Below are positions 32,732-53,343 of a stretch of DNA of 64,000 nucleotides, one piece after another; position 1 is the stretch's first letter, and each line of letters begins with the position of its first letter. The stretch is taken from positions 6,513 to 70,512 of the forward strand of contig JANXVU010000089.1 in NCBI GenBank assembly GCA_025351485.1. The letters are read 5' to 3'. The translations under genes and the position numbers were made by a program. The notes below the pieces were generated by a model. The model searched no databases. It saw only the letters and a list, made by a program, of their open reading frames with translations, and was not told the origin of the DNA. This stretch comes from Candidatus Eiseniibacteriota bacterium (GTDB taxonomy: Bacteria; Eisenbacteria; RBG-16-71-46; JACRLI01).

Positions 32732-34663
32732 CTAGTAGCTTCCGGAGGACGAATCCGGCGGCGCGTCGGACGAAGAGTCCGAGGCCTCCGTCGGCGGCGT
32801 TTCCTGCTCGGGGGCCGGGGCCGGCTCCGGCGCCGCCACGGGCTCGGGTAGGGCCGGCTCGGCCGCCACCGGCTCTTCCACCGGCTCCGGCTCCTTCAAT
32901 CCTTCCAGCACCGCCCTGGCCCACGCCGGTGCATTCTTCTTCCGGATGATGCCGCGAAAGCCCCTCGACTCGCTCCGGAGGTCGGGCGATGCCCCGGCCC
33001 TGAAACTGCATGTGATCCCGGTCTCTCCCGAATTGAACGCGCCGCCCCGCGCGGAGTACCGCGCGCCCGGACGCGTCACGCCCTCGGCCAATTCTTCCGC
33101 CGTGCCCGCGCCGCCCGCGATCATCTCGAAGATCTCCTTCACGAACTTGTCGCGGCAGATCTCGGAGACGTTGCCGTTCATGTCCACGAGCCCCCACGGG
33201 TTGGGCTTCTTCTGGCCCACCGGGTGGGTGACGCCATTCGAATTGTCGCTGAACCAGGCGCGCTCGGGGTCCTTGGAGTCGCCCCACGGGTAGCGGGTGC
33301 GGGTGCCGGCGCGGCAGGCGTATTCCCATTCGGCTTCGGACGGGAGCTCGGCGCCCACGGCGTCGCAGTACTTGCGCATTTCGTTCCAGCTCAGGTACAC
33401 CGCCGGGTTTTTTTCACCGCCGTCCAGGGAGATGGCATCGTTCAGGGCGCCGTGGCGGACTTCGATGTCGGTCAGGCCGTGCGGGTCGCGCTCCTTCTTG
33501 GGGGTGGGCATGTAGCGGGACGGCAGCACCTGCGCGCGCACCGAACAGAACTCGCAGCTCTTGTCGTGCCCGGTGTGCTGGGCCAGGAAACGCTCCCAGG
33601 TGATGGGAGTCTTGTCGATCAGGAACGTGTCGAGCGTCACTTCCACGGGCGGCTGTTCGGCCGGTGTGCCGTCCGCATCGCCCATCAGGAACGTGCCGGC
33701 CGGGACCAGCACCATCACCGACCCATCGGTGGTGCGGCGGAACTCCGGCAGGCCCTGCTCGTTCGTCCCCAGCGGCTCCAGGCGCGGGCCGGTCTCCTTG
33801 GCCGGGCCGGCGGCGGCGGTCGACCCGCCCGCTCCAGCCGGGGCGCTCCACGAGCCGGCGCCGATTTCGGGCATGGAACCGGACGAGCCGCCCAGCAGGG
33901 AAGAGAGCTCCGCGAGGCTGCTCATGCGCTGGTCGGGCTCGCGCGCCAGCAGCCTGGAGAGCAGCGCCCGGGCCGCTTCAGGGGCCGGGGACAGGTCGGC
34001 ATCCCGGGTCATGATGGCGGCGATGACCTGGCGCGGCGATCCCGTGAACGGCGGGCGTCCGGTGAGCATTTCGAAAAACACCGCGCCCAGGGAAAAGAGC
34101 GTGGCGCGCGAGCTGGCGCCGATCTCTTCGTATTCCGGAGCGGTGTAGGCCGAGAGCGTGAAGTTGGGGGGCAGCTTGCGAGTGGCGAACAGCGACGGCA
34201 GGAAGTAGTCGTCCAGCTTGGCGCCGTCATCCCGCAGGCACACCGCGTCCGGGTACAGCACCGGCATCGGGACGCCGCGGTCTTCCATGGTCTTCAGGGC
34301 CCGCGCCAGGTCGCGCAGGTAGCCCAGCGCCGCGTCAGCCCCCAGCGATCCGCCGGAGGCGATCCGGTCGCGCAGGGTGGTGCCCGCGGCTTCGGTCACC
34401 ACCAGCAGATCGCCGCCCTCGCTGTCGTTCAGCTTGAAATCCAGGATGCCCAGGAGCCCCACGGAAAAGGGCTCCGCGATGGTCTCCAGGTCCGAGGTCT
34501 GCGGGGAATGTTCCGGTGAAACCGACTTCAGGCTCGCCTTGACCCCGGACTGGCCGCGCACGCTGTACTGTTCGTAGATCTCGTTGCGGCGCAGCCCCAG
34601 CTCGACGGTCCAATCGCCGAGCGGGCTCTTGTCGGGGCTGTAGCGAAACCCGTCGCTAGACAA
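32732..34663 (-). CDS. Pseudokinase-like domain fused to a formylglycine-generating-enzyme (FGE/SUMF1) family domain
   Basis: The N-terminal about 270 aa has a kinase-like fold with an APE motif, but the Gly-loop, VAIK Lys, HRD and DFG motifs are degenerate. The C-terminal about 250 aa match the FGE-sulfatase domain (…FLMGD… NPWGL.DM.GNV.E…). It overlaps the upstream ClpB/V-like gene by 8 nt, so the two are probably co-transcribed. Confidence 0.65.
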   Translation of the reverse strand: MSSDGFRYSPDKSPLGDWTVELGLRRNEIYEQYSVRGQSGVKASLKSVSPEHSPQTSDLETIAEPFSVGLLGILDFKLNDSEGGDLLVVTEAAGTTLRDRIASGGSLGADAALGYLRDLARALKTMEDRGVPMPVLYPDAVCLRDDGAKLDDYFLPSLFATRKLPPNFTLSAYTAPEYEEIGASSRATLFSLGAVFFEMLTGRPPFTGSPRQVIAAIMTRDADLSPAPEAARALLSRLLAREPDQRMSSLAELSSLLGGSSGSMPEIGAGSWSAPAGAGGSTAAAGPAKETGPRLEPLGTNEQGLPEFRRTTDGSVMVLVPAGTFLMGDADGTPAEQPPVEVTLDTFLIDKTPITWERFLAQHTGHDKSCEFCSVRAQVLPSRYMPTPKKERDPHGLTDIEVRHGALNDAISLDGGEKNPAVYLSWNEMRKYCDAVGAELPSEAEWEYACRAGTRTRYPWGDSKDPERAWFSDNSNGVTHPVGQKKPNPWGLVDMNGNVSEICRDKFVKEIFEMIAGGAGTAEELAEGVTRPGARYSARGGAFNSGETGITCSFRAGASPDLRSESRGFRGIIRKKNAPAWARAVLEGLKEPEPVEEPVAAEPALPEPVAAPEPAPAPEQETPPTEASDSSSDAPPDSSSGSY

Positions 34664-37163: not shown

Positions 37164-37312
37164 ATCCGAGGCATTGTAGGGCCCCCGGGGAGGCCGGTCA
37201 AATGGTGGAGTGGCCCCGGATCGGAGGTTGCAGACGCGGCCGGGAAGGCCCTACACTGCCAATCCAGATTCCGGACCCCAAATGTTCCGATTCCAATCAA
37301 GAGGAGGTCGCC

Positions 37313-37753
37313 GTGGCAGTCAATCTGAACGTACCCCTGGTGGCCACGATCAGCCATGCCAAGAGCTGGCACGCCGCCGCGAGCATGGTGAACTTCTACT
37401 TCCGCCCCGGAGCCCGGTTCTGGTCCCCGGACCAGGAAGGCGCCGGCGGCGGGGTCATCGACAACGAGGACTTCGTCCTGGCCCGCAAGCAGGGCCTGAT
37501 GCCGTTCTACTTCACCGGCAAGTGGGAGCCCAAGCTGATCGAAAGCGTGCTGCTCTCTCGCGGCCCCATGTGGTGCGTGGGCCGGTGGTACGGGCCGGTG
37601 GGCGTGATCGTCATCACCGGAGTGGACGGCGACCGCATATTCTTCAACGATCCGGTCGAGCCGGCGGTCAAGGCCGAGAAGATCACCTGGTTCAACCAGA
37701 ACCTGGCCCGCCAGGCCAACGCCGTCATGGTCAAGGATCCCTCCTCGCTGTAG
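37313..37753 (+). CDS. Small hypothetical protein with a Peptidase_C39-like (papain-fold) C-terminal signature; catalytic residues not clearly conserved
   Basis: Strong RBS GAGGAGG, then GTG. The motif …GVIVITGVDGDRIFFNDP… resembles the '…HYVVVTGYDxxxVYVNDP' block of C39-like peptidases. Coding potential (GC3) is good. Confidence 0.4.
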   Translation: MAVNLNVPLVATISHAKSWHAAASMVNFYFRPGARFWSPDQEGAGGGVIDNEDFVLARKQGLMPFYFTGKWEPKLIESVLLSRGPMWCVGRWYGPVGVIVITGVDGDRIFFNDPVEPAVKAEKITWFNQNLARQANAVMVKDPSSL

Positions 37754-37810
37754 GCGGGACCGGTTCGCCCCATGTCCTTGGATCACCTGATCTCCGGGAG
37801 GGAAACCCCA

Positions 37811-38466
37811 TGAGCGAACACCTTGCCGCGCCCGGCGAGTGCCTGGCGAGCCTCAGCGAGACGTTCGGCTTTCCGGACTTCCACACCATCCTGGACCACC
37901 CGGAAAACAGCGCGCTCAAGACCGCCCGCCCCAATCCCAACATGCTGGTGCCGGGCGACCTGGTGCATATTCCCGACCCGGCGCCCAAGAAGGCCAGCCT
38001 TTCGGAAGACCTGCAGCACGAGATCCGGATCAAGCAGCCGGAGGCCCGCTTCAAGCTCAAGCTGATGGATGACCAGGGAGTGGTGTTCGCGGGAAAGAAG
38101 TTCAACCTGAAGATCGGCTCCACCGAGATCACCGGGAACACCGACGGCGACGGGATGATCAACGAGATCATCCCGCCGGGGTTGACTTCGGGCGAACTGA
38201 CCTTCTTTCCCGAGGGGCGCGATGACGTGCTGGAGGGCTACTTGATCCCGCTCAGCCTGGGGAATCTCAGACCTCCCGATACCACCGACGGCCAGAAGAT
38301 GCGTCTCCAGAATCTGGGCTACCCGATCGGCCCCCTGGGAACGACCGTGGACGAGAGGACCCAGCGCGGCATTCGCATGTTCCAGCGCGACCAGGCCCTG
38401 ACTGCCAACGCCACGCTGGACGCTCCCACCACGGCCAAGCTCAAGCAAGTCCACGACGGCAACTGA
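37811..38466 (+). CDS. LysM domain + peptidoglycan-binding (PG_binding_1-like) domain protein, paralog 1
   Basis: N-terminal LysM-like segment (…GECLASLSETFGF…ILDHPENSALKTARPNPNMLVPGDLVHIPD). C-terminal PG_binding_1-like segment (…RLQNLGYPIGPLGTTVDERTQRGIRMFQRDQALTANATLDAPTTAKL). GGAGGG RBS. Confidence 0.6.
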
Positions 38467-38484
38467 CCCGAGGATTCGAGGCGC

Positions 38485-38961
38485 ATGCCATCCTTCGCGC
38501 GATCCAGCCCAGGAACCAACCACCACAACACCCTGATCCTGCCCCGGGTGAAAGTCTTCTTTCAGCGGTTTCCCGGCACCCTGGGAAGCGACGCGGACCG
38601 GGGTATCGCCAACGTGCCCTTCGTGTTCAAAGTGGACGGCCGCCTGGTGGGCAAGGGAACGACCGCCGCGGACGGGAGCATCACCGTGTTCACCCTGCCG
38701 GCGGTGGGGCTCGCGGTGCTCAATATTTTCGGCACGGACTACAACCTGATCCGGGTGCCGCTCGAGCCGGCCCCGGATATCGCCGGCGCCCAGCGCAGGT
38801 TGCAGCTCCTGGGCTACATGTCCGCCTCGGTCACGAATACGCTGGAGATCAATGCCGGCGAGGCGCTCTTCCAGTTCCAGGCAGACAACCCGCCGCTCGA
38901 CCCGCAGGGCGACCTGCCGGATCCGACCACCACCAAGCTCAAATCGGTTTTCGGGGAATAG
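38485..38961 (+). CDS. Hypothetical protein with a C-terminal PG_binding_1-like domain
   Basis: C-terminus …AQRRLQLLGYMSASVTNTLEINAGEALFQFQADNPPLDPQGDLPDPTTTKL fits the peptidoglycan-binding repeat consensus. The middle region resembles that of the LysM paralogs. Confidence 0.45.
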   Translation: MPSFARSSPGTNHHNTLILPRVKVFFQRFPGTLGSDADRGIANVPFVFKVDGRLVGKGTTAADGSITVFTLPAVGLAVLNIFGTDYNLIRVPLEPAPDIAGAQRRLQLLGYMSASVTNTLEINAGEALFQFQADNPPLDPQGDLPDPTTTKLKSVFGE

Positions 38962-38964
38962 GCC

Positions 38965-40065
38965 ATGACGATCGACATCACTTATCACAAGCGCAAGCGG
39001 CTCAGCCTGGTGCGGTTCTCCCGCGCCACCACGGGCAACCCGGTGATCGACAAGCCCGATCCGGATACCCGCGGGTTCGCCACGCCGGAGTTTGGCGCGG
39101 TGTTGCCGGTGACGGAGAACAAGACCGTGTTCGTGCGGCTGAATCGCGACAACGTGGACCCGGGCGCCGACCTGTTCGTGAAGTCTTCGGACGAGACCAT
39201 CTTCACCGTGGCGGGCCTCACCGGGGGCAAACTTCCCACCGGCGCGACGCAGGACATCCAGGTGGCGGCCAAGGGGGGCGGCACGCCCAAGAAGGCCTCG
39301 CTGGAGGTGCGGTTCGGGGCCCTCGACGGACCGATCATTTCGAAACTCGCGGTGTTCGTGTTCATCAAGCGCACCCTGCGGATCACCCCGCACAACCTGA
39401 GCATCAAGTCGGCCTCCGCGGCCGCGATCCCCAGCGCCGTGGACATCAATTCGGTGATCGGCCTGGTGCGGGCCATCTGGGCGCAGTGCGGCCTGGAGCT
39501 CACCGTTTCGGCCACCGTGACGGATGCGCATACTTTCGCGGTTGCCGGCCGGGTGGGCCGGGGCATTGAGCGGAACAAGGTCCTGAGCGCCCGATTCATC
39601 CCCAACACCATCAACGCCTATTTTGCGCACCAGCTGGAAGGATCCACCCCCGGAACGCTGGGCCTTGGATTCAGCCGAAAATTCATCACCGACAACGGGT
39701 TGCCCAACCCGGGCATCCTCCTTGGGGACGGGAACGTGGCGGGAACCGACCGGAGCACCGACAACATGTGGCTGGCCAACGACCTGGCCCACGAGATCGG
39801 ACACTTCCTGAGGCTCGACCACACCGAGAGGAAGGAGCCGCCCGACAATCGCACCGACCTGTGGTCCAGGCGCCGGCTCATGCACAATTTCAACACCCAG
39901 GGCAGTTCCGGCGACTTCCACGACCAGGTTGGATACGGGGACCGCGCGCCCGGCGACGTGCGGCGCGGCTGCTTCGTGAGCATGAAGGACCTGTCGCAAC
40001 TCACGACCGACGGCGAGGTCGCCGTGGTGCGCAGCACCATCGAGTCCGCGGCCGGGCCCTACTGA
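38965..40065 (+). CDS. Metzincin-like zinc metallopeptidase (HEIGHFLRLDH motif): candidate secreted effector/toxin
   Basis: HExxH…H zinc-binding motif at residue about 290 (HEIGHFLRLDH) with a downstream Met (…RRRLMHNF…). No signal peptide. Sits between the ClpV-like and PAAR/tssB genes. Confidence 0.55.
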   Translation: MTIDITYHKRKRLSLVRFSRATTGNPVIDKPDPDTRGFATPEFGAVLPVTENKTVFVRLNRDNVDPGADLFVKSSDETIFTVAGLTGGKLPTGATQDIQVAAKGGGTPKKASLEVRFGALDGPIISKLAVFVFIKRTLRITPHNLSIKSASAAAIPSAVDINSVIGLVRAIWAQCGLELTVSATVTDAHTFAVAGRVGRGIERNKVLSARFIPNTINAYFAHQLEGSTPGTLGLGFSRKFITDNGLPNPGILLGDGNVAGTDRSTDNMWLANDLAHEIGHFLRLDHTERKEPPDNRTDLWSRRRLMHNFNTQGSSGDFHDQVGYGDRAPGDVRRGCFVSMKDLSQLTTDGEVAVVRSTIESAAGPY

Positions 40066-40087
40066 GCCCGAGGGAGAGGGGATCGAA

Positions 40088-40855
40088 ATGTCCACGCTGG
40101 TCGAACTGGTCCGAGCCAAGGACTACACCGCCTGCCTCGCCGTGCGCGAGGAGGGAGCGGCTGCCGTGCCCGCGCTGCTCGGGTTTGCCAACGACCGCGA
40201 CCCCGAAGTGCGCGAGCTTGCGCTTCACTGCCTGGACGAGATCGGGGGACCGGAGGCCGAACGCGCTTTCTGCGTGGGGCTCCTGGATCGAGACGCCCAG
40301 GTGCGCTCGGCGGCCATGAAGGGCGCCGGCCACCACTGCACCACGGCTTCGGTGGAGGCCCTGAATCACGCCTACGAGCAGAGCCCGGAGCCGGTGGTGC
40401 GCGAAAACGTGATGCTCATCCTGGGCGCGCTGCCGGGCATGGAAGCCGCGAAGCTGCGGGGCCGCTGGGAGCGCGAGAAGCTGCCGCTGGCCCACGACGG
40501 CGGGCGCGCCGCGATGGCCCGGCTCGGGGATCCGAAGGCCCAGGAAGAGTTTTCGGCGCGGCTCCTGGCTTCGGCCGGGACCGAGCGCGTCCGGCTCTTC
40601 GAATACGCGGGCTTCATCCGCCAGCCGTTCTTGCTGAAAACGCTCCTGCCGATCCTGGACGATGGTTCGGATGGGATCCGGATCGGCGCCGATGGAGTCA
40701 CGGAATGTCCCTACGCCCTGAAGTTCCGCGACATGGCCGTCAACCTGGCCGCCGCCATCAGCGGTCAGCGGTTCAGTTTCGAGATCCGGCCCAACATCAA
40801 CTACACCGACTCCCAGGTGTCCGAAGTCCGGCAGTACCTCGCCGGGCTGCGATGA
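40088..40855 (+). CDS. HEAT-repeat (PBS-lyase-type) protein, cytoplasmic paralog
   Basis: Repeated …DPEVRELALHCL… / …DAQVRSAAMKG… HEAT-like units. Shares a C-terminal block (…IRIGADG…) with the next gene. Confidence 0.55.
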   Translation: MSTLVELVRAKDYTACLAVREEGAAAVPALLGFANDRDPEVRELALHCLDEIGGPEAERAFCVGLLDRDAQVRSAAMKGAGHHCTTASVEALNHAYEQSPEPVVRENVMLILGALPGMEAAKLRGRWEREKLPLAHDGGRAAMARLGDPKAQEEFSARLLASAGTERVRLFEYAGFIRQPFLLKTLLPILDDGSDGIRIGADGVTECPYALKFRDMAVNLAAAISGQRFSFEIRPNINYTDSQVSEVRQYLAGLR

Positions 40856-41742
40856 GCCCGCGGGGCCGGCTCGCGCTGCTGGCGGCCATCGCCCTCGGGC
40901 TGGCCGCCTGCGGCGCATCTCCGCGCGGGGCCTCCGCCCCGAATTCCTCGCCCGCCCGCGTCTCCTCCGACAGCCTGCTCCAGTCGATCGAGGCCAAGGT
41001 CCGCGCGCACGACTACTCCGCGCAGAACGACGCGCGGGGACTCGGCGACGGGGCCTTTCCGCTGCTGGCGCGGCTCGCCACGGACCGCGATCCCGACGCC
41101 CGATCGCTGGCGCTGCTGTGCCTCGAGAGCGCTGGCGGTAGCCGCGGTGGCCGGGTGCTGGGTGCGGCGCTGAACGATTCTTCCGCCGACGTTCGCATGG
41201 TCGCCTCCCAGGCGCTGGGCCGGCGCCCATTCCCGGACGCCCTGCCGTACCTGCTATCCGCCGTACGAACGTCGGCCGATCCCGCGATCCGACGCAACTG
41301 CGCGCTGGCGGCGGGAATGATTCCCGGGGCCAGCGCCTCGAAGCTGCGCGAGAGCAGCCGCGCCGAGAAGGATCCCGATGTGCAAATGGCCCTGGTCCAG
41401 GCGCGCGCGCGCCTTGGCGACGGGGAAGCGCGCCGGGAGTTCCAGGCCGGGCTCACGTCCGCCCAGGGCCAGGTCCGCGTTTTATGGCTGGAACGCTGCA
41501 GGTACGTCGGAGAGCCCTGGGTTCTGTCCCCGCTGGCGCCATGGCTGGACGATACGCACCCCGCGGTGCGCATCGGGGCCGACGGCCTTCCGGGCCCGCA
41601 GTACCTTCGCGTGTGCGACGTGGTGATCAACCTGGCGGCTGAATTAGGGAAGCCCAGGTGGAGTTTCAAGACCGGGCCGGCGAAGAACTATTCGGAGGAA
41701 GAACGTAAGGAAGCCCGGCGGGTCCTGGGCTCCATTCGTTGA
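40852..41742 (+). CDS. HEAT-repeat lipoprotein (paralog of the preceding gene)
   Basis: Signal peptide with lipobox (LALLAAIALGLAACG). HEAT-like repeats (…DPDARSLALLCL…, …SADVRMVASQAL…, …DPAIRRNCALAAG…). ATGA overlap with the upstream gene. Confidence 0.55.
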   Translation: MSPRGRLALLAAIALGLAACGASPRGASAPNSSPARVSSDSLLQSIEAKVRAHDYSAQNDARGLGDGAFPLLARLATDRDPDARSLALLCLESAGGSRGGRVLGAALNDSSADVRMVASQALGRRPFPDALPYLLSAVRTSADPAIRRNCALAAGMIPGASASKLRESSRAEKDPDVQMALVQARARLGDGEARREFQAGLTSAQGQVRVLWLERCRYVGEPWVLSPLAPWLDDTHPAVRIGADGLPGPQYLRVCDVVINLAAELGKPRWSFKTGPAKNYSEEERKEARRVLGSIR

Positions 41743-41843: not shown

Positions 41844-42320
41844 CTACTTCAAAGAAATCGTGAACGCCTTGACGATCTCGTCGAACTGCTCCTCCAGCCG
41901 CGCGAAGGCCGATTCCGGGGCGCTGGCGGTGATGATGAACATCACCGGGTCCTTGTAGACGTACCACTGCGCCTGGCGCACGACCACGTCCTTGGGGTTC
42001 TTCCAGGCGTACTGGACGTAGTTTGCGGAGCGCCCCGCGAGGCTGCGGCGCTCCTTCTTGATCTCCTTGTAGTCGGGCAGCTGGCCCTGCAGATCGAGCA
42101 TCAGTCCCTGCGCGAAGCCTTCCACATCCTTGAGCCCGGGAATATTGTCCTGGGTCACGGCCAGCGAGGGCTGCATGTCCTGGATGGTCTCCGGGAGCGC
42201 CGCCAGGTAGACGGAGCGGTCGGTCCAGCCTTCGGGCAGGGCCATCTTGAAACATGCGCCCCTGAGCTCGGGAATCACGGGCTTGGTGGGCGGGTGCGCG
42301 GGCGCCTTGGCATCGGCCAT
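41844..42320 (-). CDS. DUF1795/DcrB-like protein: candidate Eag-type T6SS effector chaperone
   Basis: About 158 aa. Pattern …VYLAALPE…LAVTQDNIP… …YVQYAWKNP… …FIITASAPESAF… resembles the DUF1795 fold. Located immediately downstream of a PAAR protein that carries hydrophobic segments. Confidence 0.5.
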   Translation of the reverse strand: MADAKAPAHPPTKPVIPELRGACFKMALPEGWTDRSVYLAALPETIQDMQPSLAVTQDNIPGLKDVEGFAQGLMLDLQGQLPDYKEIKKERRSLAGRSANYVQYAWKNPKDVVVRQAQWYVYKDPVMFIITASAPESAFARLEEQFDEIVKAFTISLK

Positions 42321-42330
42321 GGAATCTCCG

Positions 42331-43017
42331 TTAGGACTCGACGGTCCAGGAATCCTTGTCGAGGTCGGTCAGTGTGAGTTCGCAGTTGCCGGCGGGCAGG
42401 CCGAATTCCACCACCATGCCGTCGTTCCGCGAGTGGCCCTTGCGGATCTTGCCGTCGGGCAGTTTCAAGTCGTAGGCCACGGCCACGGCGGGGTCTCCGC
42501 TTGCCAGGGTCAGCTTGGCCTTGAAGAAGTGGCGCTGCATGGGGCAGGGGGGTGGCGGTCCGAGCCCGCCGCCGGCAGCCGCCCCGGCTGTTCCGGCCGC
42601 ACACACCGGGGCCGCGCCCGCCAGGGCGCCGCTCACCGCGCTCGAAGGGATCGCGGCGAGATCCAGGAGCCCCAGCAGAATGGCGACGAGCGCCATGAGC
42701 ATGTCCAGGATGGAAACCCCGATGTCCCCGATCAGGACGGCCGGAAATCCCATCACGATGGTCCCGCCGTGCCCGTGCAGGCTGGTCATGCGGGCGGCCG
42801 GCATGCCGCCGAAGAATACTCCCATGGATCCCATCATGATGGGCGCGGGCGGGCCCGTGGCGCACGCGCACATGCCGCCCACCACGGCCGCAGGCTGGCC
42901 CCCGATCATGACCGTCGGGCACCCCGGCGGCATGACGACGCCGCCCACGTGGGGCACCAGCACGGTGAACATCGGGCACACGTGGGGATCGCCAACTCGA
43001 GCGGCGGGGAATCCCAT
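42331..43017 (-). CDS. PAAR-domain protein with hydrophobic (TM-like) region and small C-terminal domain: candidate T6SS spike-tip/effector
   Basis: PAAR-like repeats (…ARVGDPHVCPM… GCPTVMIGGQPAAVVGGMCAC… GGMPAARMTSLHGHGG… VLIGD). Then a hydrophobic stretch (…SILDMLMALVAILLGLLDLAAIP…) and an about 70 aa C-terminal domain. Confidence 0.65.
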   Translation of the reverse strand: MGFPAARVGDPHVCPMFTVLVPHVGGVVMPPGCPTVMIGGQPAAVVGGMCACATGPPAPIMMGSMGVFFGGMPAARMTSLHGHGGTIVMGFPAVLIGDIGVSILDMLMALVAILLGLLDLAAIPSSAVSGALAGAAPVCAAGTAGAAAGGGLGPPPPCPMQRHFFKAKLTLASGDPAVAVAYDLKLPDGKIRKGHSRNDGMVVEFGLPAGNCELTLTDLDKDSWTVES

Positions 43018-43304
43018 GGGGCGCTTCCTCCGGGTGAGTGCGGGGTCAGGATCGGAAAATTACTTCGCCTAGACTGCACCAAATCGGGCCGGACTGCAAC
43101 GGCGCGTTCGGCCGATTCCGGGGGGCCGGGGCCGGGCAACAGGCGGATCAAAAATAAATCGTCAACCCACCCCCTATATAGAATGATCCCGCGATTTGTC
43201 GCTTGGCAAAGACGGGCCGCTGCCTTACGTTCACCCCCTGTAAAATTGTCCTATATCCAGCCTCGCGGCTGGTGCGTTCGAGCCCGCAACCACGGAGGAG
43301 TATC

Positions 43305-43754
43305 GTGCCGAAGCAGAAATTCATCGGCGCTCAGCACGAGCGAGAAGCGGATCTCACCATGGGGGTGGAGATCCTCGACACGAACAAGACCCTTTTCGTC
43401 GCGGCCATGAATGAGCAGGCCGGAGACAACCCCGAGCCGATCCAGTGCCGGACCATGGGCGAGGTGTTCGACACCTTCAAGCCCAAGGTCGAGATCACCG
43501 TGGAAGGCGAGGACGGAGCCAACTCGGACGCCGAGATCAAGTTCAACCGTGTGGGCGACTTCCTGCCGGAATCCGTCATCGAGCAGTCCCCGGAACTTCG
43601 CGCGCAGCACACCGAGCTCCTGCTGCTCAAGGACCTCATGAACCAGCTGCGCAACAACAAGAGCCTGCGCAAGGCGGTGGACTCTCCCGACCGGGAAGTT
43701 CTCATCAAGGGTATCCAGGCGGCGCGCGCGGCCATCGGCGTGAAGGAGAGCTAG
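43305..43754 (+). CDS. tssB: T6SS contractile sheath small subunit TssB (VipA-like)
   Basis: About 150 aa, GGAGGAG RBS + GTG. Sits immediately upstream of the large sheath subunit. Sequence features are typical of TssB (…KQKFIGAQ…EREADLTMGVEILD…). Confidence 0.75.
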   Translation: MPKQKFIGAQHEREADLTMGVEILDTNKTLFVAAMNEQAGDNPEPIQCRTMGEVFDTFKPKVEITVEGEDGANSDAEIKFNRVGDFLPESVIEQSPELRAQHTELLLLKDLMNQLRNNKSLRKAVDSPDREVLIKGIQAARAAIGVKES

Positions 43755-43757: not shown

Positions 43758-45179
43758 ATGGCAAACGAACAGGAACGCGCGCAAGAGCAGGCCGGAGCGG
43801 CCTACGCGGAACCGGCCAAGCCGGAAGACTTCACCTCGCAGCTCGCGGAGCTCAACGCTCCCAAGGCGGCGGGCAAGGCCGACGCCGCCATCGCGTGGCT
43901 GGGCAAGGCCATGCCGAGCGCTTCGGTGGAGGGCGCCAAGCTTCCGCCCATCGATCTGCTGGACCCGACCAAGAAGAAGCAGTACGAGGACCTGGTCAGG
44001 AACAAGAACTTTTCCGAGACCAAGGACCTGCTCGCCAAGCGGCTGAACGTCTGGAACGGCGCGCTCACGTCCTCCGAGGACCTTGAGACCCTCATCGAGA
44101 ACACCCAGCAGCGGCTGGAGAAGCTCGAGGAGCTGCTGAACAAGAACCTCAAGAAGGCGTTCGAGGTGATCCGCCCGCTGGAGACCAACTACCGCGCCGT
44201 GGACGGGTTCTTCATGAACGCCGCCGTGGAGGCGGGCGACAAGGTCGAGGTGAGCTTCCTGAACGCCTCCGCCGAGCAACTCCTGAACCCCGACGACCGC
44301 TCCATCTTCGAGGAAGGCCTTGCCGGCGCCATCCAGACGCGTTTCCGCGACTGGACGCTGAAGGAGACCTACTCGAACCTGTGCGTGCCGGGCTGGGTCG
44401 GCACGGTCCAGAACATCGACCGGCTGGGAATCCTGGGATCGCAGAACAAGGTCCAGGTGTTCTCGGACGCCGAGAACTACGAGAGCTTCAAGCAGCTCCA
44501 GGACAACCTGGACCAGCGGGCGTTCGAAGGCCTGCGTGGCGCCGGCCTGGAAAAGCAGTACGTCTCCCTGTTCGGCAACTGGCTGCTCGGGCGCAAGAAG
44601 TACGACTGGGAAGAAGACGACCTGTGGCTGCCGCCGTCGGCGCTGATGACCGGCGTGGTCTACAAGACCGACGAGACCAAGGGCATCCAGGAGGCCGCGG
44701 CCGGTTACCGCAAGGGCAAGATCCAGGGCTCGACCGGCGTGCGTTTCCGCGTCGATCGTCCCACCGGCGGCAAGATGCTGTTCCAGTACGGAGTCAGCCC
44801 GGTGGTGGACTGGGACGGCTACCCGATCGCCATGGGCGACGCCAACCTCTCGAGCAAGGAAGGCGTGGACGCTTACCCGCGCATCCGGACCGAGGACTGG
44901 CTGCTCAAGAACGTGTGCCACTACCTGAACAAGCAGGCCTACCAGAACATCACCGACACGTTCCGTTCGGCGGTGAAGGCCGACCTGCACGACTTCCTTT
45001 CCAAGTGCACCGGCCCGGACAGCGAAGTGAAGAGCTTCGACATCCAGGTGCAGGCCACCCCGGAAATGGAAAAGCGGCACGAAGTGGACGTGGTGCTGAC
45101 GGTGAAGTTCCAGAACTCGGTGCGTTCGTTCAACGTGAAGGTCAAGGAGGCCGACGCCCAGGTCCAGCAGGGCGCTTAG
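43758..45179 (+). CDS. tssC: T6SS contractile sheath large subunit TssC (VipB-like)
   Basis: 473 aa with the typical TssC length and conserved C-terminal sheath-domain blocks (…GYPIAMGDANLS…, …DVVLTVKFQNSV…). The tssB-tssC pairing is T6SS-specific. Confidence 0.8.
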   Translation: MANEQERAQEQAGAAYAEPAKPEDFTSQLAELNAPKAAGKADAAIAWLGKAMPSASVEGAKLPPIDLLDPTKKKQYEDLVRNKNFSETKDLLAKRLNVWNGALTSSEDLETLIENTQQRLEKLEELLNKNLKKAFEVIRPLETNYRAVDGFFMNAAVEAGDKVEVSFLNASAEQLLNPDDRSIFEEGLAGAIQTRFRDWTLKETYSNLCVPGWVGTVQNIDRLGILGSQNKVQVFSDAENYESFKQLQDNLDQRAFEGLRGAGLEKQYVSLFGNWLLGRKKYDWEEDDLWLPPSALMTGVVYKTDETKGIQEAAAGYRKGKIQGSTGVRFRVDRPTGGKMLFQYGVSPVVDWDGYPIAMGDANLSSKEGVDAYPRIRTEDWLLKNVCHYLNKQAYQNITDTFRSAVKADLHDFLSKCTGPDSEVKSFDIQVQATPEMEKRHEVDVVLTVKFQNSVRSFNVKVKEADAQVQQGA

Positions 45180-45256: not shown

Positions 45257-45655
45257 ATGGCGCAGGAACCCAAGCTCAAGGTGGATGGAACCGCGGTTCC
45301 CAACCTGCTCTCGGTCTCCTACGGCCTCCGGGCCGGCGTGGACCGTGACGGGCGTCCCACCCGCATGCTCATCTTCGACGGAATCACCATTCGCCGAATC
45401 GGCGATGCCAAGACGACCCTCGCCAACTGGGCGAAGGACCCCAAGGAAAAGAACCGCAAGAGCGGGGAGATCGAGTTCTTCGGGGACGCCGGCAAGGCCA
45501 TCAAGAAACTGACCTGGAAGAACGGGTTCGTGAAGCACTACGACCTCCGTTACAATCCCGAGGCTGACCATGTGGAAGAGACTGTCGTGATCCAGGCCGA
45601 AGAGATCAACTCCGGCGGGATGAAGATCGAATGCCACTGGGCCGACAAGCAATAG
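45257..45655 (+). CDS. hcp: Hcp-like inner tube protein (paralog 1)
   Basis: 132 aa, located between tssC and vgrG. Sequence is β-rich, similar in size to Hcp family members. Assignment rests mainly on size and synteny. Confidence 0.55.
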   Translation: MAQEPKLKVDGTAVPNLLSVSYGLRAGVDRDGRPTRMLIFDGITIRRIGDAKTTLANWAKDPKEKNRKSGEIEFFGDAGKAIKKLTWKNGFVKHYDLRYNPEADHVEETVVIQAEEINSGGMKIECHWADKQ

Positions 45656-45669: not shown

Positions 45670-46089
45670 ATGCCGATTCGTCAAATCAAGGTGGAGATCG
45701 ACGGCAAGCACATTTCCAACGTGCTCGCCGTGGACTACGGCCTGGAAGTGAGCCACGACGCCGACGGCAGCCCGAGCGATGCCCGCCCGCGCCTTGCCCG
45801 CATCTGCGTCACCCGCAAGACCGATGATTCGACGCAGCTGGGGGACTGGGCCTGCAAGCCCTTCCGCGGCCACTTCAAGTCCGGCAAGATCAGCTTCTTC
45901 GCGCCGGACGAAGAGACCAAGGTGCAGTCCACCATGTCATGGACCGATGGGTTCGTGACCCTGTACCGCGAATGGGTGCCGGACGTGCAGACGCACCGCG
46001 GGGATCCGATGGTGGAGTACATCGAGATCTCGGCCCAGAAGATCAAGATCAACGATACGGAAGTGGACGCGGACACCTGGACCACCTAG
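45670..46089 (+). CDS. hcp: Hcp-like inner tube protein (paralog 2, divergent)
   Basis: 139 aa. Shares the N-terminal pattern (…I.V.IDG…VS..YGL…) with paralog 1. GGAGGA RBS. Confidence 0.5.
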   Translation: MPIRQIKVEIDGKHISNVLAVDYGLEVSHDADGSPSDARPRLARICVTRKTDDSTQLGDWACKPFRGHFKSGKISFFAPDEETKVQSTMSWTDGFVTLYREWVPDVQTHRGDPMVEYIEISAQKIKINDTEVDADTWTT

Positions 46090-46189: not shown

Positions 46190-48151
46190 ATGTCAGCGCA
46201 TGCGGATATCGACGTCAAGATCGGCGGCAAGACCGCCGTCGACCTGGGAATCAAGCTCGGGCGGCTGGTGCTGAATGAAGCCCTCGGGGCGCACGCCACG
46301 TTCTCCCTGGAGTGCCACGCGCTGGACGAGGGCCAGGCCGTGCAGGTTTCGGGCAGCCAAGCCAAGCTGGACGACCTGTTCAAGCAGCTGGGCAAGGACC
46401 TGGAGATCACCGTCCTGTCGCCCGACCGAAACACCACCCGCCATTCGCTGCAGTTCGTCGGCCTGGTCACCGACGTGCACAGCCAGCGCCTGCGCGGGGG
46501 CGGCTATACGGTGTTCCTGGACGGCAAGAGCCACACCATCCTGATGGACATGGAAACCCACTACCGGTACGGCCCGCTGGACGACTCTGCCCGCCACCTG
46601 CGCACCTTCCTTGAAGTGATCACCGGCGAGTACGGAACCCTGTGCGCCCTGCAACTCAGCGCCAACCCGGTGGTGGACTACGGCATGCAGTCGGCCGAGA
46701 CCGATTTCAATTTCGTGAACCGCCTGGCTCAGCGCGAAAAGGCGTGGTGCTTCTACGACGGCGTGAAACTCCAGATCACCGACCAGCTCCCGTCCCAGGT
46801 GGTGGATCTGACCATGGGCCCGAACCAGGCCGAGGACGCCCTGGACGCATTCCGCATCCGCACCGCTCTGGCGGTGGGCTCCGTGGGCGTGGCCACCGAG
46901 GACTGGAAGACCGGAACGTTCATGGCGGTCAAGACCGACACCCTGGCGCTGCCGGCGGCCATCCACCCGTGGGCGCAGCAGACCCGCTCGGTGTACGAGG
47001 CCAAGAAGACCCACATCCAGGCCGAGTTCGCCGAGCGGCACATGGCCAGCCAGAGCGAGCTCGAGGGATACCTCACCGCCCGCAAGGCCGCGTGGGCCAG
47101 TCACCTGGTCCAGGTCGAGGGCAACTCGTCCAACGCCGACGTGCGGATCGCGCGCAAGGTCAACCTGACCGCCCTGGGCGTGGGCCAGGCCTCCAAGTAC
47201 GTGGTCTCGAGCGTGTCCCACACCATGGACATCTTCCGGGGCACCTACGAGAACCACTTCGAGGCGTTCCCCGAGGAGGGCGCGACCCCGCGCCAGTCCC
47301 ATCACCGCGAGCAGGCGCTGGAACTGTGCGAAGCCCGGGTGATGACCCAGGGCGACGACGACCACGTGGGCCAGGTGCAGGTGCAGTTCTTCGGCGCCGG
47401 CCAGCGCGGCCAGATGTGGGCCCGGGTGGCCCAGCCCATCGCGGGCAAGGGCGCGGGCATGTTCGTGATCCCCGAGACCGGCGACAGCGTGATGGTCTCG
47501 TTCCTGGACGGCGATCCCAGCCGGCCCGTGGTGGTGGGCAGCGTCTATCGCGGCCAGGCCGCGGGCAAGCCCAAGACCTGGGACGACGTGGACAACGTCG
47601 CCAAGAACACCAAGAAGATCTGGCACACCCGCAGCGGCCACAAGATCGTGTTCGAGGACGACCCGGACGGCAGCAAGACCGACGGGACCATCCTGATCAT
47701 CACCGGCGACGGCAAGAACGAGATCAAGCTCACCGGCAAGGGCGGAACCGAAAAGATCGAGATCCGCACCAAGGGCAACATCGCGATCGGCGCCGACGGT
47801 TCGATCAGCATGAGCGCCGGGGGTGATATCCACCTGGAAGCCGGCGGCGAAATCGGGCTCAAGTCCAAGAAGAAGACCACCGTGGACGCGACCGAGGACG
47901 CGATCGTGAAGTCCAAGAAGAACATCACCTTGAGTGCGACCGAGGACGGCAAGTTCGAGGCCACCAAGAACCTGGAGCTTTCGGCCACGCTGAAGCTGGC
48001 TGCTTCGGGAAAGACGGGCGCCAAGGTGTCCACGCCCGCGCAGCTGGAGGTTTCGGGAACGGCGTCGGCCAAGCTCTCCGGCGGGACCGGTTCGGTCACC
48101 TGCGATCCGGCCGGAGTGACGGCCATGGGCCCGATGATCAAGCTGAACTAG
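46190..48151 (+). CDS. vgrG: VgrG spike protein (gp27/gp5-like, with C-terminal β-helix repeats)
   Basis: Phage baseplate-V/gp5 OB-fold signature (…VIPETGDSVMVSFLDGDPSRPVVVGSVY…). N-terminal gp27-like region. C-terminal repetitive β-helix (…KIEIRTKGNIAIGADGSISMSAGGDIHLEAGGEIGLKSKK…). Confidence 0.85.
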   Translation: MSAHADIDVKIGGKTAVDLGIKLGRLVLNEALGAHATFSLECHALDEGQAVQVSGSQAKLDDLFKQLGKDLEITVLSPDRNTTRHSLQFVGLVTDVHSQRLRGGGYTVFLDGKSHTILMDMETHYRYGPLDDSARHLRTFLEVITGEYGTLCALQLSANPVVDYGMQSAETDFNFVNRLAQREKAWCFYDGVKLQITDQLPSQVVDLTMGPNQAEDALDAFRIRTALAVGSVGVATEDWKTGTFMAVKTDTLALPAAIHPWAQQTRSVYEAKKTHIQAEFAERHMASQSELEGYLTARKAAWASHLVQVEGNSSNADVRIARKVNLTALGVGQASKYVVSSVSHTMDIFRGTYENHFEAFPEEGATPRQSHHREQALELCEARVMTQGDDDHVGQVQVQFFGAGQRGQMWARVAQPIAGKGAGMFVIPETGDSVMVSFLDGDPSRPVVVGSVYRGQAAGKPKTWDDVDNVAKNTKKIWHTRSGHKIVFEDDPDGSKTDGTILIITGDGKNEIKLTGKGGTEKIEIRTKGNIAIGADGSISMSAGGDIHLEAGGEIGLKSKKKTTVDATEDAIVKSKKNITLSATEDGKFEATKNLELSATLKLAASGKTGAKVSTPAQLEVSGTASAKLSGGTGSVTCDPAGVTAMGPMIKLN

Positions 48152-48170: not shown

Positions 48171-49031
48171 ATGGCCCTTCCATTCCCGGTCCGGCGGTCC
48201 ATGTCCGGCGGCGCCGGCGGTTCGGCGCTGCCGCCCCTGCGTCTGCCCTTCACCATCGTGAGCACCGCCTCCAGCGGGCGCGCGCCCGCCGCGGGCCGGC
48301 GCAGCTGGGGCAACCGGCTGGGGCTCTGGTGGACCGATGCCGAGGAGGGCGAACCGGGCGTGGTGGTGACCGGCCTGCTGCCGCACGGGCCCGCATCCGC
48401 GGGCGGCGCGGTCAAGGTTGGCGACCTGGTGGTGGAAGTGGAAGGGGCGCGCGTCACGACCCTGGGAGACATCACCCGTTTTCTGGAAAACCAGGGCCCC
48501 GGACCGCTCCGCATGACCGTCAAGCGCGGCCCGCACGAGGAGCACACGGTGGTGCTGGACGTCCCGCCCGAGCCCGGAGAGGCCGCCGCGTCTGCCGCGG
48601 GGCCCGCCGGGGGCTACTCGGCCCGTGTTCCCACGACCGACCTCCTCGACTCGCTCAAGCGCAACATCGAGTGGATCCTGGGCAACCCGGTGCAGAGCGA
48701 GATCACCCACCCGGGAGTCTCCGCCGATCCCGAATTTGGCTGCCTGGGGGCGGACCTTGAATTCAGCCTGCGCACGGTGGGCCTGTCGGAAATCCGAAAC
48801 GCCATCGTGCAGTGCGAGCCCCGGCTCAAGGAAGTGGAAGTGGAGTCGGCCGAGTTCGAGGTGCGCGAAGAGGGCGAGGTCTCGCTCAAGCCGGGGATCC
48901 GCGTTCACGCCCTGATGTCCGGCACCGGGGAAAAGATCAAGATCGAATTGGAAGTCGCGGGCCTGGCCCGGGCGCGGTTCACCAACCGCCGCCGCACATC
49001 GGTGGAAGACGCGGGACTGGAGGGGCGGTAG
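48171..49031 (+). CDS. tssE: PDZ domain fused to gp25-like baseplate wedge protein (TssE-like)
   Basis: The N-terminal about 140 aa contain a PDZ-like fold (…GVVVTGLLPHGPASAGGAVKVGDLVVEVEGARVTTLGDI…). The C-terminal about 130 aa match the GPW/gp25 family (…LLDSLKRNIEWILGNPVQSEI…AIVQCEPRL…). High GC3 across both parts. Confidence 0.6.
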   Translation: MALPFPVRRSMSGGAGGSALPPLRLPFTIVSTASSGRAPAAGRRSWGNRLGLWWTDAEEGEPGVVVTGLLPHGPASAGGAVKVGDLVVEVEGARVTTLGDITRFLENQGPGPLRMTVKRGPHEEHTVVLDVPPEPGEAAASAAGPAGGYSARVPTTDLLDSLKRNIEWILGNPVQSEITHPGVSADPEFGCLGADLEFSLRTVGLSEIRNAIVQCEPRLKEVEVESAEFEVREEGEVSLKPGIRVHALMSGTGEKIKIELEVAGLARARFTNRRRTSVEDAGLEGR

Positions 49032-50759
49032 ATGGCGAGTGGATCCATGAGCCGAGGATGGGGCTGGCTCAAGCCCGAGGAGCGCGACTTTGAGGCCGTG
49101 CTCCGGCGGCTGCACAAGGAAGCCTCCGAATCCATCCCCGGCCTTTCGCCCGACCCCAAGCAGGCCGACCCGGTGATCGTGATGCTCCTGCGCGCGTTCG
49201 CGCGCGAATACGTGGAGCTCTACCATCTGCTGGACGACTCGGTGGGCATGGCCTACCGAACCCTGGTTTCCCGCCTGGTGGCGTTCCCGCACGCTCCCGA
49301 GCCCGCCACCACCGCCCTGCAGCTGGTGGTGAAGGACGCCGGCGCCAAGGTGCCGATCGACTTCGAGGCCATCTCCTCCCAGCCCGTGATCCTGGCAGGC
49401 AGGCGCAGCGTGCAGGCCCACTTTTCGCCCTACGACGAGGGCGTGGTGTCCAGCTTCGAAGCGGGACCGGTGGCGCTGGTGGAGCCTTCGGGCGTGGCCT
49501 GGCGGATGAGCCTGAACCCCAATGAGACTTCCGCGGGCCGCTGGCAGGCGCCGCCTCGCAACTACGCTTCGCTGTTCCTGGCCCTGGATTCACCCTCGCC
49601 CTCGGCCACCGACCCGGTCACGGTGTTCGTGCACGGGGGCGACCGCGCGGTGCAGCAGTGCCTGTGGTCGCGCTGGGTGATTCCGGCCTCCCAGGGGGGG
49701 CCGGCCATCCGGATCCACGACAACGTGCCGGAGCCGTTCGTGCCGGGGAAGGTGTTCTACGAGGGCGCCCCGTTCGAGCCCCCGATGTTCACCTTCCGCA
49801 GCGACGCGCGGCGCATCCGCAGCCCCTACGAGCCGCAGTTCGTGAAGGTCGGCGGCGAGGCGCTGCTCTCCCAGGCGTGCCCGTTCCCCAGGGAACTGGG
49901 GTCCCCGGGAGTGGCGCTTTCGCAGCCCCACGGCACGCGCCACTGGGTGCGGGTCGACCTGCCGCCCGACGTGGACCTGACGGCGCTGCGGCAGGTGCGC
50001 TTCGCCACCAATGCCGTGCTGGCCGCCAACCGCGAGCTGCGCACCTCGGGCGCGATCAACGTGGACGCCACACCCATCCACACCTGGCTCTTCCCCGAGA
50101 CCGTCGATTTCGATTCGCTGCTGCGCCTGGAACGGGTGATCGACCTGAAGTCGGGGCACCTGTACCAGTCGTCGGACTCGCACGAAGGCCTGGAGTCCCC
50201 GCGCGCCTACCGCCTGGTGGAGTGGCTGGACGGCGAGCGGCGGGCGCTCAAGGTGGAATTGCTGAACCGCGAGGACACTCCGCGGGCGAGCCAGGTGGAA
50301 ATCGTGTACTCGCTCACGCTGGGCACGGCCGCCAACGGGCTGGAGCCGGGCACGATCAGCCAGGTGTTCACGCCGCCCCAGGTGTTTCCGGGTCTCCTGT
50401 CCGTCAATAACCTGGTCCCGGCGATCGGCGGACGCCCGGCGCGCACCGCGGACCTGCAGGAAGACGAACTCCGCGCCGCGCTGCGCCACCGCGGCCGCAC
50501 GGTGGTCGCGAGCGACTACCTGGAGTCCGCGCGCGCGTTCGATCCGGATCGCGTCACGTCCGTTTCCCTGGGCCGGGGCGTGGCCCGTGGCCCGCGGGGG
50601 CTCCGCAGCACGGTGCGCCTGGACGTGGAGCTGAACGCCGCGGCGTTCGTAAGCGCCATGGAGCGCGAGTCGTTCCGTCTGCGCCTCGAAGGCTACCTGC
50701 AAGACCGGTCTGCGATGGGCGAGTGCGTCGAGGTGCGGCTGGCCGGAGGGCCCGCTTGA
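49032..50759 (+). CDS. tssF: Baseplate protein TssF-like (gp6-like)
   Basis: 575 aa. The N-terminal block (…DPVIVMLLRAFAREYVELYHLLDDS…) fits the TssF N-terminal consensus. Position after tssE. Confidence 0.6.
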   Translation: MASGSMSRGWGWLKPEERDFEAVLRRLHKEASESIPGLSPDPKQADPVIVMLLRAFAREYVELYHLLDDSVGMAYRTLVSRLVAFPHAPEPATTALQLVVKDAGAKVPIDFEAISSQPVILAGRRSVQAHFSPYDEGVVSSFEAGPVALVEPSGVAWRMSLNPNETSAGRWQAPPRNYASLFLALDSPSPSATDPVTVFVHGGDRAVQQCLWSRWVIPASQGGPAIRIHDNVPEPFVPGKVFYEGAPFEPPMFTFRSDARRIRSPYEPQFVKVGGEALLSQACPFPRELGSPGVALSQPHGTRHWVRVDLPPDVDLTALRQVRFATNAVLAANRELRTSGAINVDATPIHTWLFPETVDFDSLLRLERVIDLKSGHLYQSSDSHEGLESPRAYRLVEWLDGERRALKVELLNREDTPRASQVEIVYSLTLGTAANGLEPGTISQVFTPPQVFPGLLSVNNLVPAIGGRPARTADLQEDELRAALRHRGRTVVASDYLESARAFDPDRVTSVSLGRGVARGPRGLRSTVRLDVELNAAAFVSAMERESFRLRLEGYLQDRSAMGECVEVRLAGGPA

Positions 50760-53335: not shown

Positions 53336-53343
53336 GACCACCT

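Follow-up and report, generated by a model that had tools for sequence, protein, structure and literature searches.

A PAAR protein with a transthyretin-like C-terminal domain and a putative Eag-type chaperone encoded beside it in a T6SSiii-like gene cluster

What would a gene of the DcrB/DUF1795 family be doing beside the gene for a type VI secretion system (T6SS) PAAR protein that carries no recognisable toxin? This question is raised by positions 41,844 to 43,017 of a 64,000-nucleotide stretch, hereafter the window, of contig JANXVU010000089.1 (assembly GCA_025351485.1) from a Candidatus Eiseniibacteriota bacterium. The span holds exactly two co-oriented minus-strand open reading frames (ORFs), the first coding for a PAAR protein that ends in a small C-terminal domain (CTD) and the second, 10 nt downstream, for a DcrB/DUF1795 protein (Table 1). 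The initial annotation, made from the letters alone, took the pair for a T6SS cargo module in which an Eag chaperone stabilises the transmembrane regions of a PAAR effector. Our analysis favours a related model, which we regard as probable, in which an Eag-type chaperone would shield a hydrophobic tether behind the PAAR domain and a transthyretin (TTR)-like CTD would dock separately encoded cargo.

Both ORFs display a coding-type pattern, with a G+C content at third codon positions of 0.86-0.87 in a window of 65-70% GC. The identical PAAR protein was found on 10 contigs, and since the adjoining PAAR and DcrB genes recur, with identical products, on several metagenome contigs of independent origin, the two ORFs are not assembly artefacts. 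The identification of the first ORF as a PAAR protein was borne out by a match to Pfam PAAR_motif (PF05488, residues 22-88, 3e-19, 69.5 bits versus a cutoff of 27). AlphaFold2 modelled this domain with a per-residue confidence (pLDDT) of 93-98, and Foldseek matched it to the E. coli c1882 PAAR protein (4jiw_D, E 1.6e-4, target-normalised TM-score, TMt, 0.80). Sequence matches of the protein in the PDB comprised the contractile injection system (CIS) PAAR of SalCis10 (1.9e-20) and the T6SS PAAR 8gra_J (2.1e-15), a 222-aa protein that aligns over the PAAR domain only. Five His/Cys residues (H12, C14, H23, C52 and H83), the putative metal ligands of the PAAR cone, are invariant in an alignment of 60 homologues.

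The second gene, described initially as a DUF1795-like protein of about 158 aa, matches Pfam DcrB/DUF1795 (PF08786, residues 26-151, 2.8e-14, 53.7 bits versus a cutoff of 27.2) and no NCBIfam model. Its best solved relative is EagT6/PA0094 (6xrf/1tu1, E 1.3e-5), and its matches to SciW are weak (E 0.4-0.9). When the window protein was aligned with four orthologues and EagT6, its Q80-L81 fell on Q65-L66 of EagT6 and proved invariant in all 5 orthologues, and the position of EagT6 Q58 was occupied by Leu in the window's protein. EagT6 L66, a "knob" lodged in the GxxxG/A "hole" of the transmembrane domain (TMD) to which the chaperone binds, is critical for the stability of the complex (PMC7773334, PMC12881460). 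Since the N-terminus contains no hydrophobic stretch (maximum Kyte-Doolittle mean of 0.77 over 15 residues), the DcrB-like protein has no apparent signal peptide and is most likely cytoplasmic, like the Eag proteins. E. coli DcrB is a periplasmic lipoprotein. By its sequence relationships, the window's protein is a putative Eag-type chaperone, predicted to bind the linker of the PAAR protein. A homologue search with it returned 2 relatives and a scan of genome contigs none; because these direct searches were nearly empty, its subfamily was collected from the loci around PAAR homologues.

The region that such a chaperone would bind lies between the PAAR domain and the CTD, and consists of a hydrophobic helix followed by a flexible linker rich in Ala, Gly and Pro. 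The transmembrane-like character ascribed to it initially holds for this protein, with a highest 19-residue Kyte-Doolittle mean of 2.47 and a summed Hessa dG of +0.11 kcal/mol for residues 99-117, borderline for membrane insertion, but the stretch is not of transmembrane grade in the nearest relatives. Nor is it part of a globular core: the AlphaFold2 model places a lone helix at residues 103-121 (pLDDT ~72-74), packed against neither globular domain, and then a disordered segment (residues 124-153, pLDDT <50). The linker comprises 11 Ala, 8 Gly and 6 Pro among its 35 residues, with several small-xxx-small-xxx-small runs, and its small-xxx-small motif is common to homologues P0002, P0003, P0005-P0008 and P0031. 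Among family members from Bacteroidota, an alignment also revealed three recurrent short motifs in the otherwise variable linker just N-terminal to the TTR-like domain, namely AA(K/Q)RG(T/A)PFCE(V/I/M)CE (for example P0021, P0022 and P0064), AAxxG(D/E)xxAERT(N/D) (P0053, P0059 and P0103) and GAEEGxxxVHKHN (P0041, P0046 and P0054).

The evidence that mainly supports a chaperone function comes from the comparison across loci. The homologue search delineated a family of PAAR proteins of ~205-240 aa with the same three-part plan, many of them from Bacteroidota (Chitinophagaceae, Puia, Ferruginibacter) and mostly in T6SSiii-type loci. PAAR and CTD are conserved across the 60 aligned sequences and the linker is not; the CTD is the best-conserved part after PAAR, also in members with hydrophilic linkers. 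A DcrB gene adjoins the PAAR-TTR gene in six loci, those being the window and the loci of P0002 (L005, 81% PAAR identity), P0003 (L006, 66%), P0008 (44%, genes overlapping by 16 nt), P0007 (L009, 4-nt overlap) and P0031 (L010). The adjacency is thus kept at 44-81% PAAR identity and despite a reversed gene order in L010. All these DcrB-bearing PAAR-TTR loci, and only these, encode a hydrophobic or Ala/Gly-rich stretch after PAAR together with a (S/A)AV(S/A)GAxAGA element. Furthermore, a metagenome scan found three PAAR proteins of non-TTR type (L043, L082 and L093) with a DcrB gene 7-31 nt upstream and an unsplit PAAR followed at once by a hydrophobic, Gly/Ala-rich stretch, a feature present in all nine distinct DcrB-adjacent loci (six TTR, three non-TTR). 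Conversely, within the fetched flanks no DcrB gene was present at five PAAR-TTR loci whose linkers are hydrophilic (L007, L008, L017, L023 and the P0030 locus), two of which have DUF4123 adaptor genes near PAAR. The presence of a DcrB gene goes with the hydrophobic segment and not with the TTR domain, and it is mainly for this reason that its product is read as a chaperone. The DUF1795 and DUF4123 accessory families appear to alternate with the type of linker.

The three non-TTR proteins are themselves of interest. Those of L082 (3995-5152) and L093 (2419-3507) end in a Gln/Ala-rich low-complexity tail of ~250 residues and that of L043 (568-1398) in an unassigned domain, and they may constitute another Eag-associated PAAR class outside the prePAAR group. 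The metagenome scan with the family alignment otherwise returned mostly orphan PAARs of ~96 aa, the only new PAAR-TTR loci being L014, L017 and L023. A scan of genome contigs with TssC yielded two loci, both ending just upstream of tssB, and no PAAR context.

The association of DcrB with the hydrophobic stretch could also mean that the Gly/Ala-zipper linker is itself the payload, a membrane-inserting or pore-forming element kept soluble by DcrB, with the TTR-like domain serving as decoration or for surface binding. This explanation accommodates the borderline insertability of residues 99-117, the conservation of small-xxx-small motifs within the clade, and the fact that the DcrB gene accompanies the hydrophobic stretch whatever C-terminal domain follows (L043, L082, L093); moreover, Eag-bound TMDs are thought to enter target membranes (PMC7773334). 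We nevertheless consider it unlikely, as no small membrane-protein immunity gene adjoins the operon, whose next genes are convergent, as the hydrophobicity is not kept in the 81% and 66% identical orthologues, which contain several Asp/Glu residues, and as the best-conserved part after PAAR is the TTR-like domain even where the linker is hydrophilic.

The CTD had been described as a domain of about 70 aa without obvious identity. Its small size was confirmed, as it forms a compact unit in the full-length AlphaFold2 model (residues ~160-228, pLDDT 90-97) and five strands when modelled alone (pLDDT 84.8), but its identity can now be given through its homologues and by Foldseek. Among 39 aligned homologous CTDs, 23 match CarboxypepD_reg (best 5.3e-6) and 22 match SpaA, a "prealbumin-like fold", and others match Big_1, Invasin_D3 or SdrD_B. 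Foldseek comparison of the CTD model with the PDB retrieved CnaB2 (8bdw, query-normalised TM-score, TMq, 0.68-0.70), the CnaB domains of BcpA (0.73) and SpyCatcher, and the match at rank 2 is the VgrG chain of the VgrG-Tle1 complex (6sjl_A), at a sequence identity of ~19-20%. A CTD profile search recovered 16,281 cluster representatives at E <= 1e-3; the best of these carry up to dozens of tandem copies in giant proteins, some of them phage-tail hub-like (DNA_circ_N/Dit-like), and P0020 and P0033 are PAAR proteins bearing several copies. A PDB sequence search with linker and CTD together gave nothing meaningful. The CTD belongs to a very widespread family of repeats with a TTR/prealbumin-like beta-sandwich fold and is not a toxin; by its sequence distribution it behaves as a generic binding or structural module. 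Taken together, the domain assignments in the operon are held with high confidence.

These results also decide between the two functions initially suggested for the CTD, a small toxin or an adaptor that recruits another effector, and favour the latter. The toxin candidate, with DcrB as its chaperone and an immunity gene elsewhere, was rejected as highly improbable: the CTD can be aligned over its whole length with homologues recognised by CarboxypepD_reg, SpaA and Big_1, it adopts a five-strand CnaB/TTR-like sandwich that recurs in tandem in giant and phage-tail-hub-like proteins, its near-invariant positions are only Gly, Tyr and Cys, with no catalytic-looking invariant residue, and no immunity candidate is adjacent. 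These points outweigh the frequency of C-terminal toxins on PAAR proteins and the lack of a Pfam match for the window's own CTD. Improbable too, though less so, is a role of the TTR-like domain in target recognition or as structural decoration, with cell-wall or surface glycans as ligands, as for the Ig-like domains of phage tails. Such a role would suit a domain type that is found on phage-tail hub-like and giant adhesin-like repeat proteins, and a fold that neighbouring proteins join to LysM and PG_binding_1 modules. However, effector binding is the sole experimentally defined role of TTR domains borne on T6SS spikes (PMC10715212, PMC7043769), and stand-alone CTD proteins lie within effector-type operons (L036). 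By analogy with those spikes, the CTD of the window's PAAR protein would act as an adaptor that docks cargo.

The stand-alone proteins, of ~130 aa, combine a disordered acidic or lysine-rich N-terminus with the same TTR-like domain (CTD profile E 1e-27 to 1e-31). Those of L057 and L023 are encoded between vgrG and PAAR. Because of their position beside vgrG or an orphan PAAR, they can be regarded as the fused PAAR-TTR protein divided over two genes. Judged by gene order and domain content, such fusion/fission links the TTR-like module in function with the PAAR tip and an effector-like gene set, without singling out the protein that is docked.

According to the favoured model, the bicistronic operon would produce a T6SS spike tip together with its private chaperone. 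The PAAR cone (residues 1-97) is predicted to cap the tip of the VgrG trimer, which is encoded 3 kb away. From the cone would hang the hydrophobic helix (residues 99-122) and then the disordered Ala/Gly/Pro tether (residues 123-157), ending in the ~70-residue sandwich, and this TTR-like sandwich would dock separate cargo effectors, as such domains do on VgrG and are proposed to do on some PAAR proteins. The DcrB/DUF1795 chaperone, translated beside PAAR, would shield the Gly/Ala-rich tether in the cytoplasm of the producer until the spike is loaded and fired. A bolder extension, which we hold to be a possibility but a doubtful one, is that the chaperoned Gly/Ala-zipper tether is an in-trans membrane-translocation device for TTR-docked cargo, for instance the LysM-like/PG-binding proteins or the metzincin-like peptidase; TMD-assisted delivery and toxin would then reside on separate polypeptides, and an Eag-family chaperone would have been recruited outside the prePAAR paradigm, by an unsplit, toxin-less PAAR-TTR adaptor in a phylum that is neither Bacteroidota nor Proteobacteria.

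Each part of this model has a known counterpart. In canonical Eag clients, a split PAAR is completed by a prePAAR motif (AARxxDxxxH) and accompanied by N-terminal TMDs and a toxin domain; class I prePAAR effectors have an Rhs cage, class II effectors carry a GxxxxGxxLxGxxxD motif, and the effectors come predominantly from 15 proteobacterial genera (PMC7773334). Like the class II pair EagT6-Tse6 of Pseudomonas aeruginosa (PMC7773334, PMC12881460), the window combines a DUF1795 gene with a neighbouring PAAR whose hydrophobic region lies C-terminal to PAAR and contains small-residue motifs of the GxxxG/A type, and its cytoplasmic chaperone keeps the knob leucine; unlike that proteobacterial pair, it belongs to a T6SSiii-like system in a non-proteobacterial genome. 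PAAR classes with a C-terminal TTR domain (Shneider et al. 2013, Zhang et al. 2012), as far as they are outlined in PMC5471719, share with the window protein the order of an N-terminal PAAR and a C-terminal TTR, and a carrier role for separate effectors has been proposed for them. Compared with this class as outlined there, the window adds a hydrophobic Gly/Ala-rich tether and a dedicated DUF1795 gene.

The TTR domains of VgrG proteins bind Tle1, PldA and PldB, as established by experiment (PMC5471719, PMC7043769, PMC10715212, PMC7376260). The window's CTD resembles those of EAEC VgrG1 (with Tle1), P. aeruginosa VgrG4b (with PldA), VgrG5 (with PldB) and VgrG2b in being a small sandwich on a flexible linker from the spike, but it sits on PAAR, so that a spike has one copy instead of three, and the window's own VgrG has no TTR domain by Pfam. 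Loading by DUF4123 (Tap/Tec) proteins offers a further parallel, since there too an effector with a gene of its own would be loaded by a toxin-less PAAR together with an accessory protein; the difference is that the window's PAAR is adjoined by a DUF1795 gene and not by a DUF4123 gene.

Which proteins might be docked is suggested by the genes around the operon. No gene follows DcrB on the same strand, so the search for a nearby immunity gene proposed at the outset found no adjacent candidate, and the next genes are those of a convergent operon (Table 1). This neighbouring module is also found beside PAAR in L005 and L006 and recurs in L036, where the operon runs from a stand-alone CTD protein through a LysM-like protein, a homologue of the 158-aa protein (2e-10), a metzincin-like protein with its motif kept (4e-32) and a 306-aa ORF to an orphan PAAR; the 306-aa ORF occupies the place of the window's HEAT-repeat genes, a match by position only. 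The 218-aa LysM-like protein is 30% identical (1e-28) to the product of the gene directly after PAAR-DcrB in L009. Genes with a LysM-like N-terminus follow PAAR, with or without DcrB, in L007 (931 aa), L008, L009 and L011, and the C-termini in L007, L008 and L011 vary between PG_binding_1, Metallophos and no recognised domain. The likeliest cargo would be the LysM-like/TTR-like/PG_binding_1 proteins and the metzincin-like peptidase, with the HEAT-repeat proteins as candidate immunity proteins. A second LysM-like/PG_binding_1 protein of 218 aa is encoded at the far end of the cluster (59752-60408, minus strand); it resembles a paralogous copy of the product of 37810-38466 and is the best match of the hidden Markov model of the LysM-like N-terminus (4e-33). 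The 158-aa protein of the neighbouring operon was considered as a second DcrB and rejected, as it has no Pfam match and by eye contains TTR-like and PG_binding-like parts.

With such neighbours, DcrB might instead serve one of these effectors, LysM/PG-binding or metzincin-like, as adaptor, chaperone or immunity protein, and merely be co-transcribed with PAAR. The DUF1795 fold family is broad, with periplasmic DcrB and PsbP-like proteins among its members, and the DcrB gene does lie between PAAR and a PG_binding_1 protein in two loci, L009 and that of P0008. Yet PAAR-DcrB adjacency occurs without a following LysM/PG-binding gene in the window, L005, L006, L010, L043, L082 and L093, and L007, L008, L011, L036 and L057 have LysM-type neighbours but no DcrB gene. 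The EagT6-type knob leucine is conserved, and the protein is cytoplasmic, whereas effectors that target peptidoglycan need periplasmic immunity. Service to another effector is therefore judged quite unlikely.

Several observations weigh against the favoured model of a shielded tether and a docking TTR-like domain, and they begin with the comparison to EagT6-Tse6. The window pair has no prePAAR motif by regular-expression search: at the N-terminus stands AARVGDPHVC, and PAAR forms one unsplit domain, contiguous from residue 1. No TMD precedes PAAR, the sole hydrophobic region being residues 99-122, and the GxxxxGxxLxGxxxD motif was not found in the 228-aa protein; membership of the class II prePAAR effectors was rejected on the lack of both motifs. 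Its CTD is a TTR-like sandwich and not a toxin, and there is no adjacent immunity gene. The Eag/PAAR cargo module proposed initially is supported by both Pfam matches, by the isolated helix of the model and by the conserved adjacency that tracks the hydrophobic stretch, but the module is not a canonical one. The TTR assignment, in turn, contends with the finding that the window's own CTD has no Pfam match at E up to 1 and that its Foldseek E-values are weak (0.05-0.5, at probabilities of 0.97-1.0), as is expected for a domain of only 70 residues.

The tether has its own difficulties. Hessa sums rise to +4.6 in the 81% identical orthologue (P0002) and to +2.7 in the 66% identical one (P0003), and the nearest relatives either carry several Asp/Glu residues in the helix or are merely Ala/Gly-rich. 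Judged by these sequences, the window's protein is the only one with a convincingly transmembrane-like segment, that of close relatives being weaker, and given the Asp/Glu residues there, the helix may be amphipathic and not membrane-spanning. Kyte-Doolittle values do not cleanly separate the loci with and without DcrB, since P0031 (with DcrB) scores 1.12 and P0030 (without) 1.18, and the L011 linker, at 2.09, comes with no DcrB gene on the downstream side, the only one covered. The comparative sample amounts to ~14 informative loci. Lastly, LysM-like proteins also occur beside orphan PAARs without a fused CTD (L036, L057), so these candidate cargo proteins are not specific to the fused PAAR-TTR form.

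The coordinates of the operon, its domains and its surroundings are collected in Table 1.

Table 1. Coordinates of the PAAR-DcrB operon, its domains, the neighbouring genes and related stand-alone proteins (positions refer to the window unless a locus is named).
Feature	Position	Strand	Particulars	Basis
PAAR-linker-TTR gene	42331..43017	-	228 aa, ATG start, GGAGGA ribosome-binding site	ORF list + Pfam
PAAR domain	42727..43017	-	residues 1-97, unsplit, begins at N-terminus (MGFPAARVGDPHVCP...)	Pfam + model
Hydrophobic helix	42652..42723	-	residues 99-122 (IGVSILDMLMALVAILLGLLDLAA)	Kyte-Doolittle, Hessa, AlphaFold2
Ala/Gly/Pro-rich flexible linker	42547..42651	-	residues 123-157, clade-conserved small-xxx-small motif (PSSAVSGALAGAAP)	AlphaFold2 + composition
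TTR/prealbumin/CnaB-like beta-sandwich	42334..42546	-	residues ~158-228	homologue Pfam, models, Foldseek
DcrB/DUF1795 (Eag-like) gene, putative chaperone	41844..42320	-	158 aa, ATG start, GGAGA site
Intergenic region, PAAR operon / tssB	43018..43304		divergent, presumed promoters	sequence read
tssB	43305 or 43359 to 43754	+		Pfam T6SS_VipA
tssC	43758-45179	+		Pfam PF17541, 2.7e-52
hcp, first copy	45257-45655	+		Pfam TssD PF17642
hcp, second copy	45670-46089	+		Pfam TssD PF17642
vgrG	46190-48151	+		Pfam Phage_GPD + Phage_base_V
Convergent neighbouring operon	37202..41742	+	candidate cargo/immunity module	Pfam + translations
Peptidase_C70 (AvrRpt2-like)	37202-37753	+
LysM-like N-terminus / weak CTD-type (TTR-like) match / PG_binding_1	37810-38466	+	218 aa
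TTR-like + PG_binding-like protein	38485-38961	+	158 aa	by eye
Protein with metzincin-spaced motif	38965-40065	+	366 aa, HEIGHFLRLDH, without Pfam family
HEAT-repeat protein	40088-40855	+
HEAT-repeat protein	40852-41742	+	lipoprotein-type signal (LGLAAC)
Stand-alone TTR-like proteins	L057 3800-4201; L036 219-608; L023 3800-4195		beside vgrG and/or orphan PAAR

The pair had been placed directly upstream of tssB on the opposite strand, and the operon is indeed transcribed divergently from tssB, across a gap of ~290-340 bp that depends on the tssB start. A simple scan for sigma-70 promoters and terminators found nothing, and the promoters of the divergent region are presumed ones; only by eye was a GC-rich hairpin noticed, just past the stop codon of DcrB. 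The genes tssB, tssC, both hcp copies and vgrG all lie <=3.2 kb from the PAAR gene, and the gene calls of this row were also made on the identical contigs. A PDZ-TssE fusion gene and then tssG come after vgrG, and a clpV gene lies upstream. The TssE (gp25-like) protein, encoded at 48171-49031 (plus strand), is an unusual-looking fusion with an N-terminal PDZ_6 domain (3.9e-9, residues 65-119) and GPW_gp25 at residues 157-232. The 575-, 480- and 314-aa proteins of 49032-54288 have no Pfam match and could be divergent parts of the baseplate or membrane complex, and a 747-aa Double-GTPase 2 (DO-GTPase2) protein (54285-56528, plus strand) ends the T6SS gene row. Adjoining clpV, a protein-kinase/FGE-sulfatase-domain fusion (32732-34663, minus strand) is encoded; it also occurs in the P0008 locus, whose PAAR is only 44% identical, there too beside clpV, and is possibly a conserved T6SS regulator.

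Judged from the profiles of its TssC (PF17541) and TssD (PF17642), the T6SS cluster as a whole (34656-56528) belongs to the Bacteroidota (T6SSiii) type, and Bacteroidota is the phylum in which a review of 2026 places T6SSiii (PMC13584744). The nearest named relatives of the window's TrmD are from Candidatus Eisenbacteria (76% identity). Because the sheath and tube profiles are Bacteroidota-type and TrmD is closest to Candidatus Eisenbacteria, the system is T6SSiii-like and probably lies outside Bacteroidota, in an Eisenbacteria genome. One contig, L012 (DATKKS010000117.1), whose TssC shares 84% identity with that of the window, is labelled Candidatus Saccharimonadales, as is a TrmD match (P0138, 79%); this label seems doubtful for a high-GC, T6SS-bearing genome and probably reflects a binning or labelling error.

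PAAR-TTR proteins and Eag chaperones are each known, and what is new here is the pairing of an Eag-type chaperone with a toxin-less PAAR-TTR protein outside the prePAAR group in a T6SSiii-like system. Eag chaperones have so far been defined through proteobacterial prePAAR effectors, single chains that unite a toxin with a split PAAR and a TMD at the N-terminus. To judge by this operon and its relatives, the partnership between Eag proteins and hydrophobic segments may be older and more modular, here involving an intact PAAR, a hydrophobic element placed after it, non-toxic C-termini (a TTR adaptor or a Gln/Ala-rich tail) and T6SSiii-type systems outside Proteobacteria. Should this not be confirmed, the locus would still be correctly annotated, as an ordinary PAAR-TTR spike tip. 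If it holds true, the search rules for Eag clients would have to be widened, the operon would offer experimenters a small natural system with separable chaperone, tether and cargo dock, and the set of LysM-like, PG-binding and metzincin-like proteins would become candidate cargo of T6SSiii.

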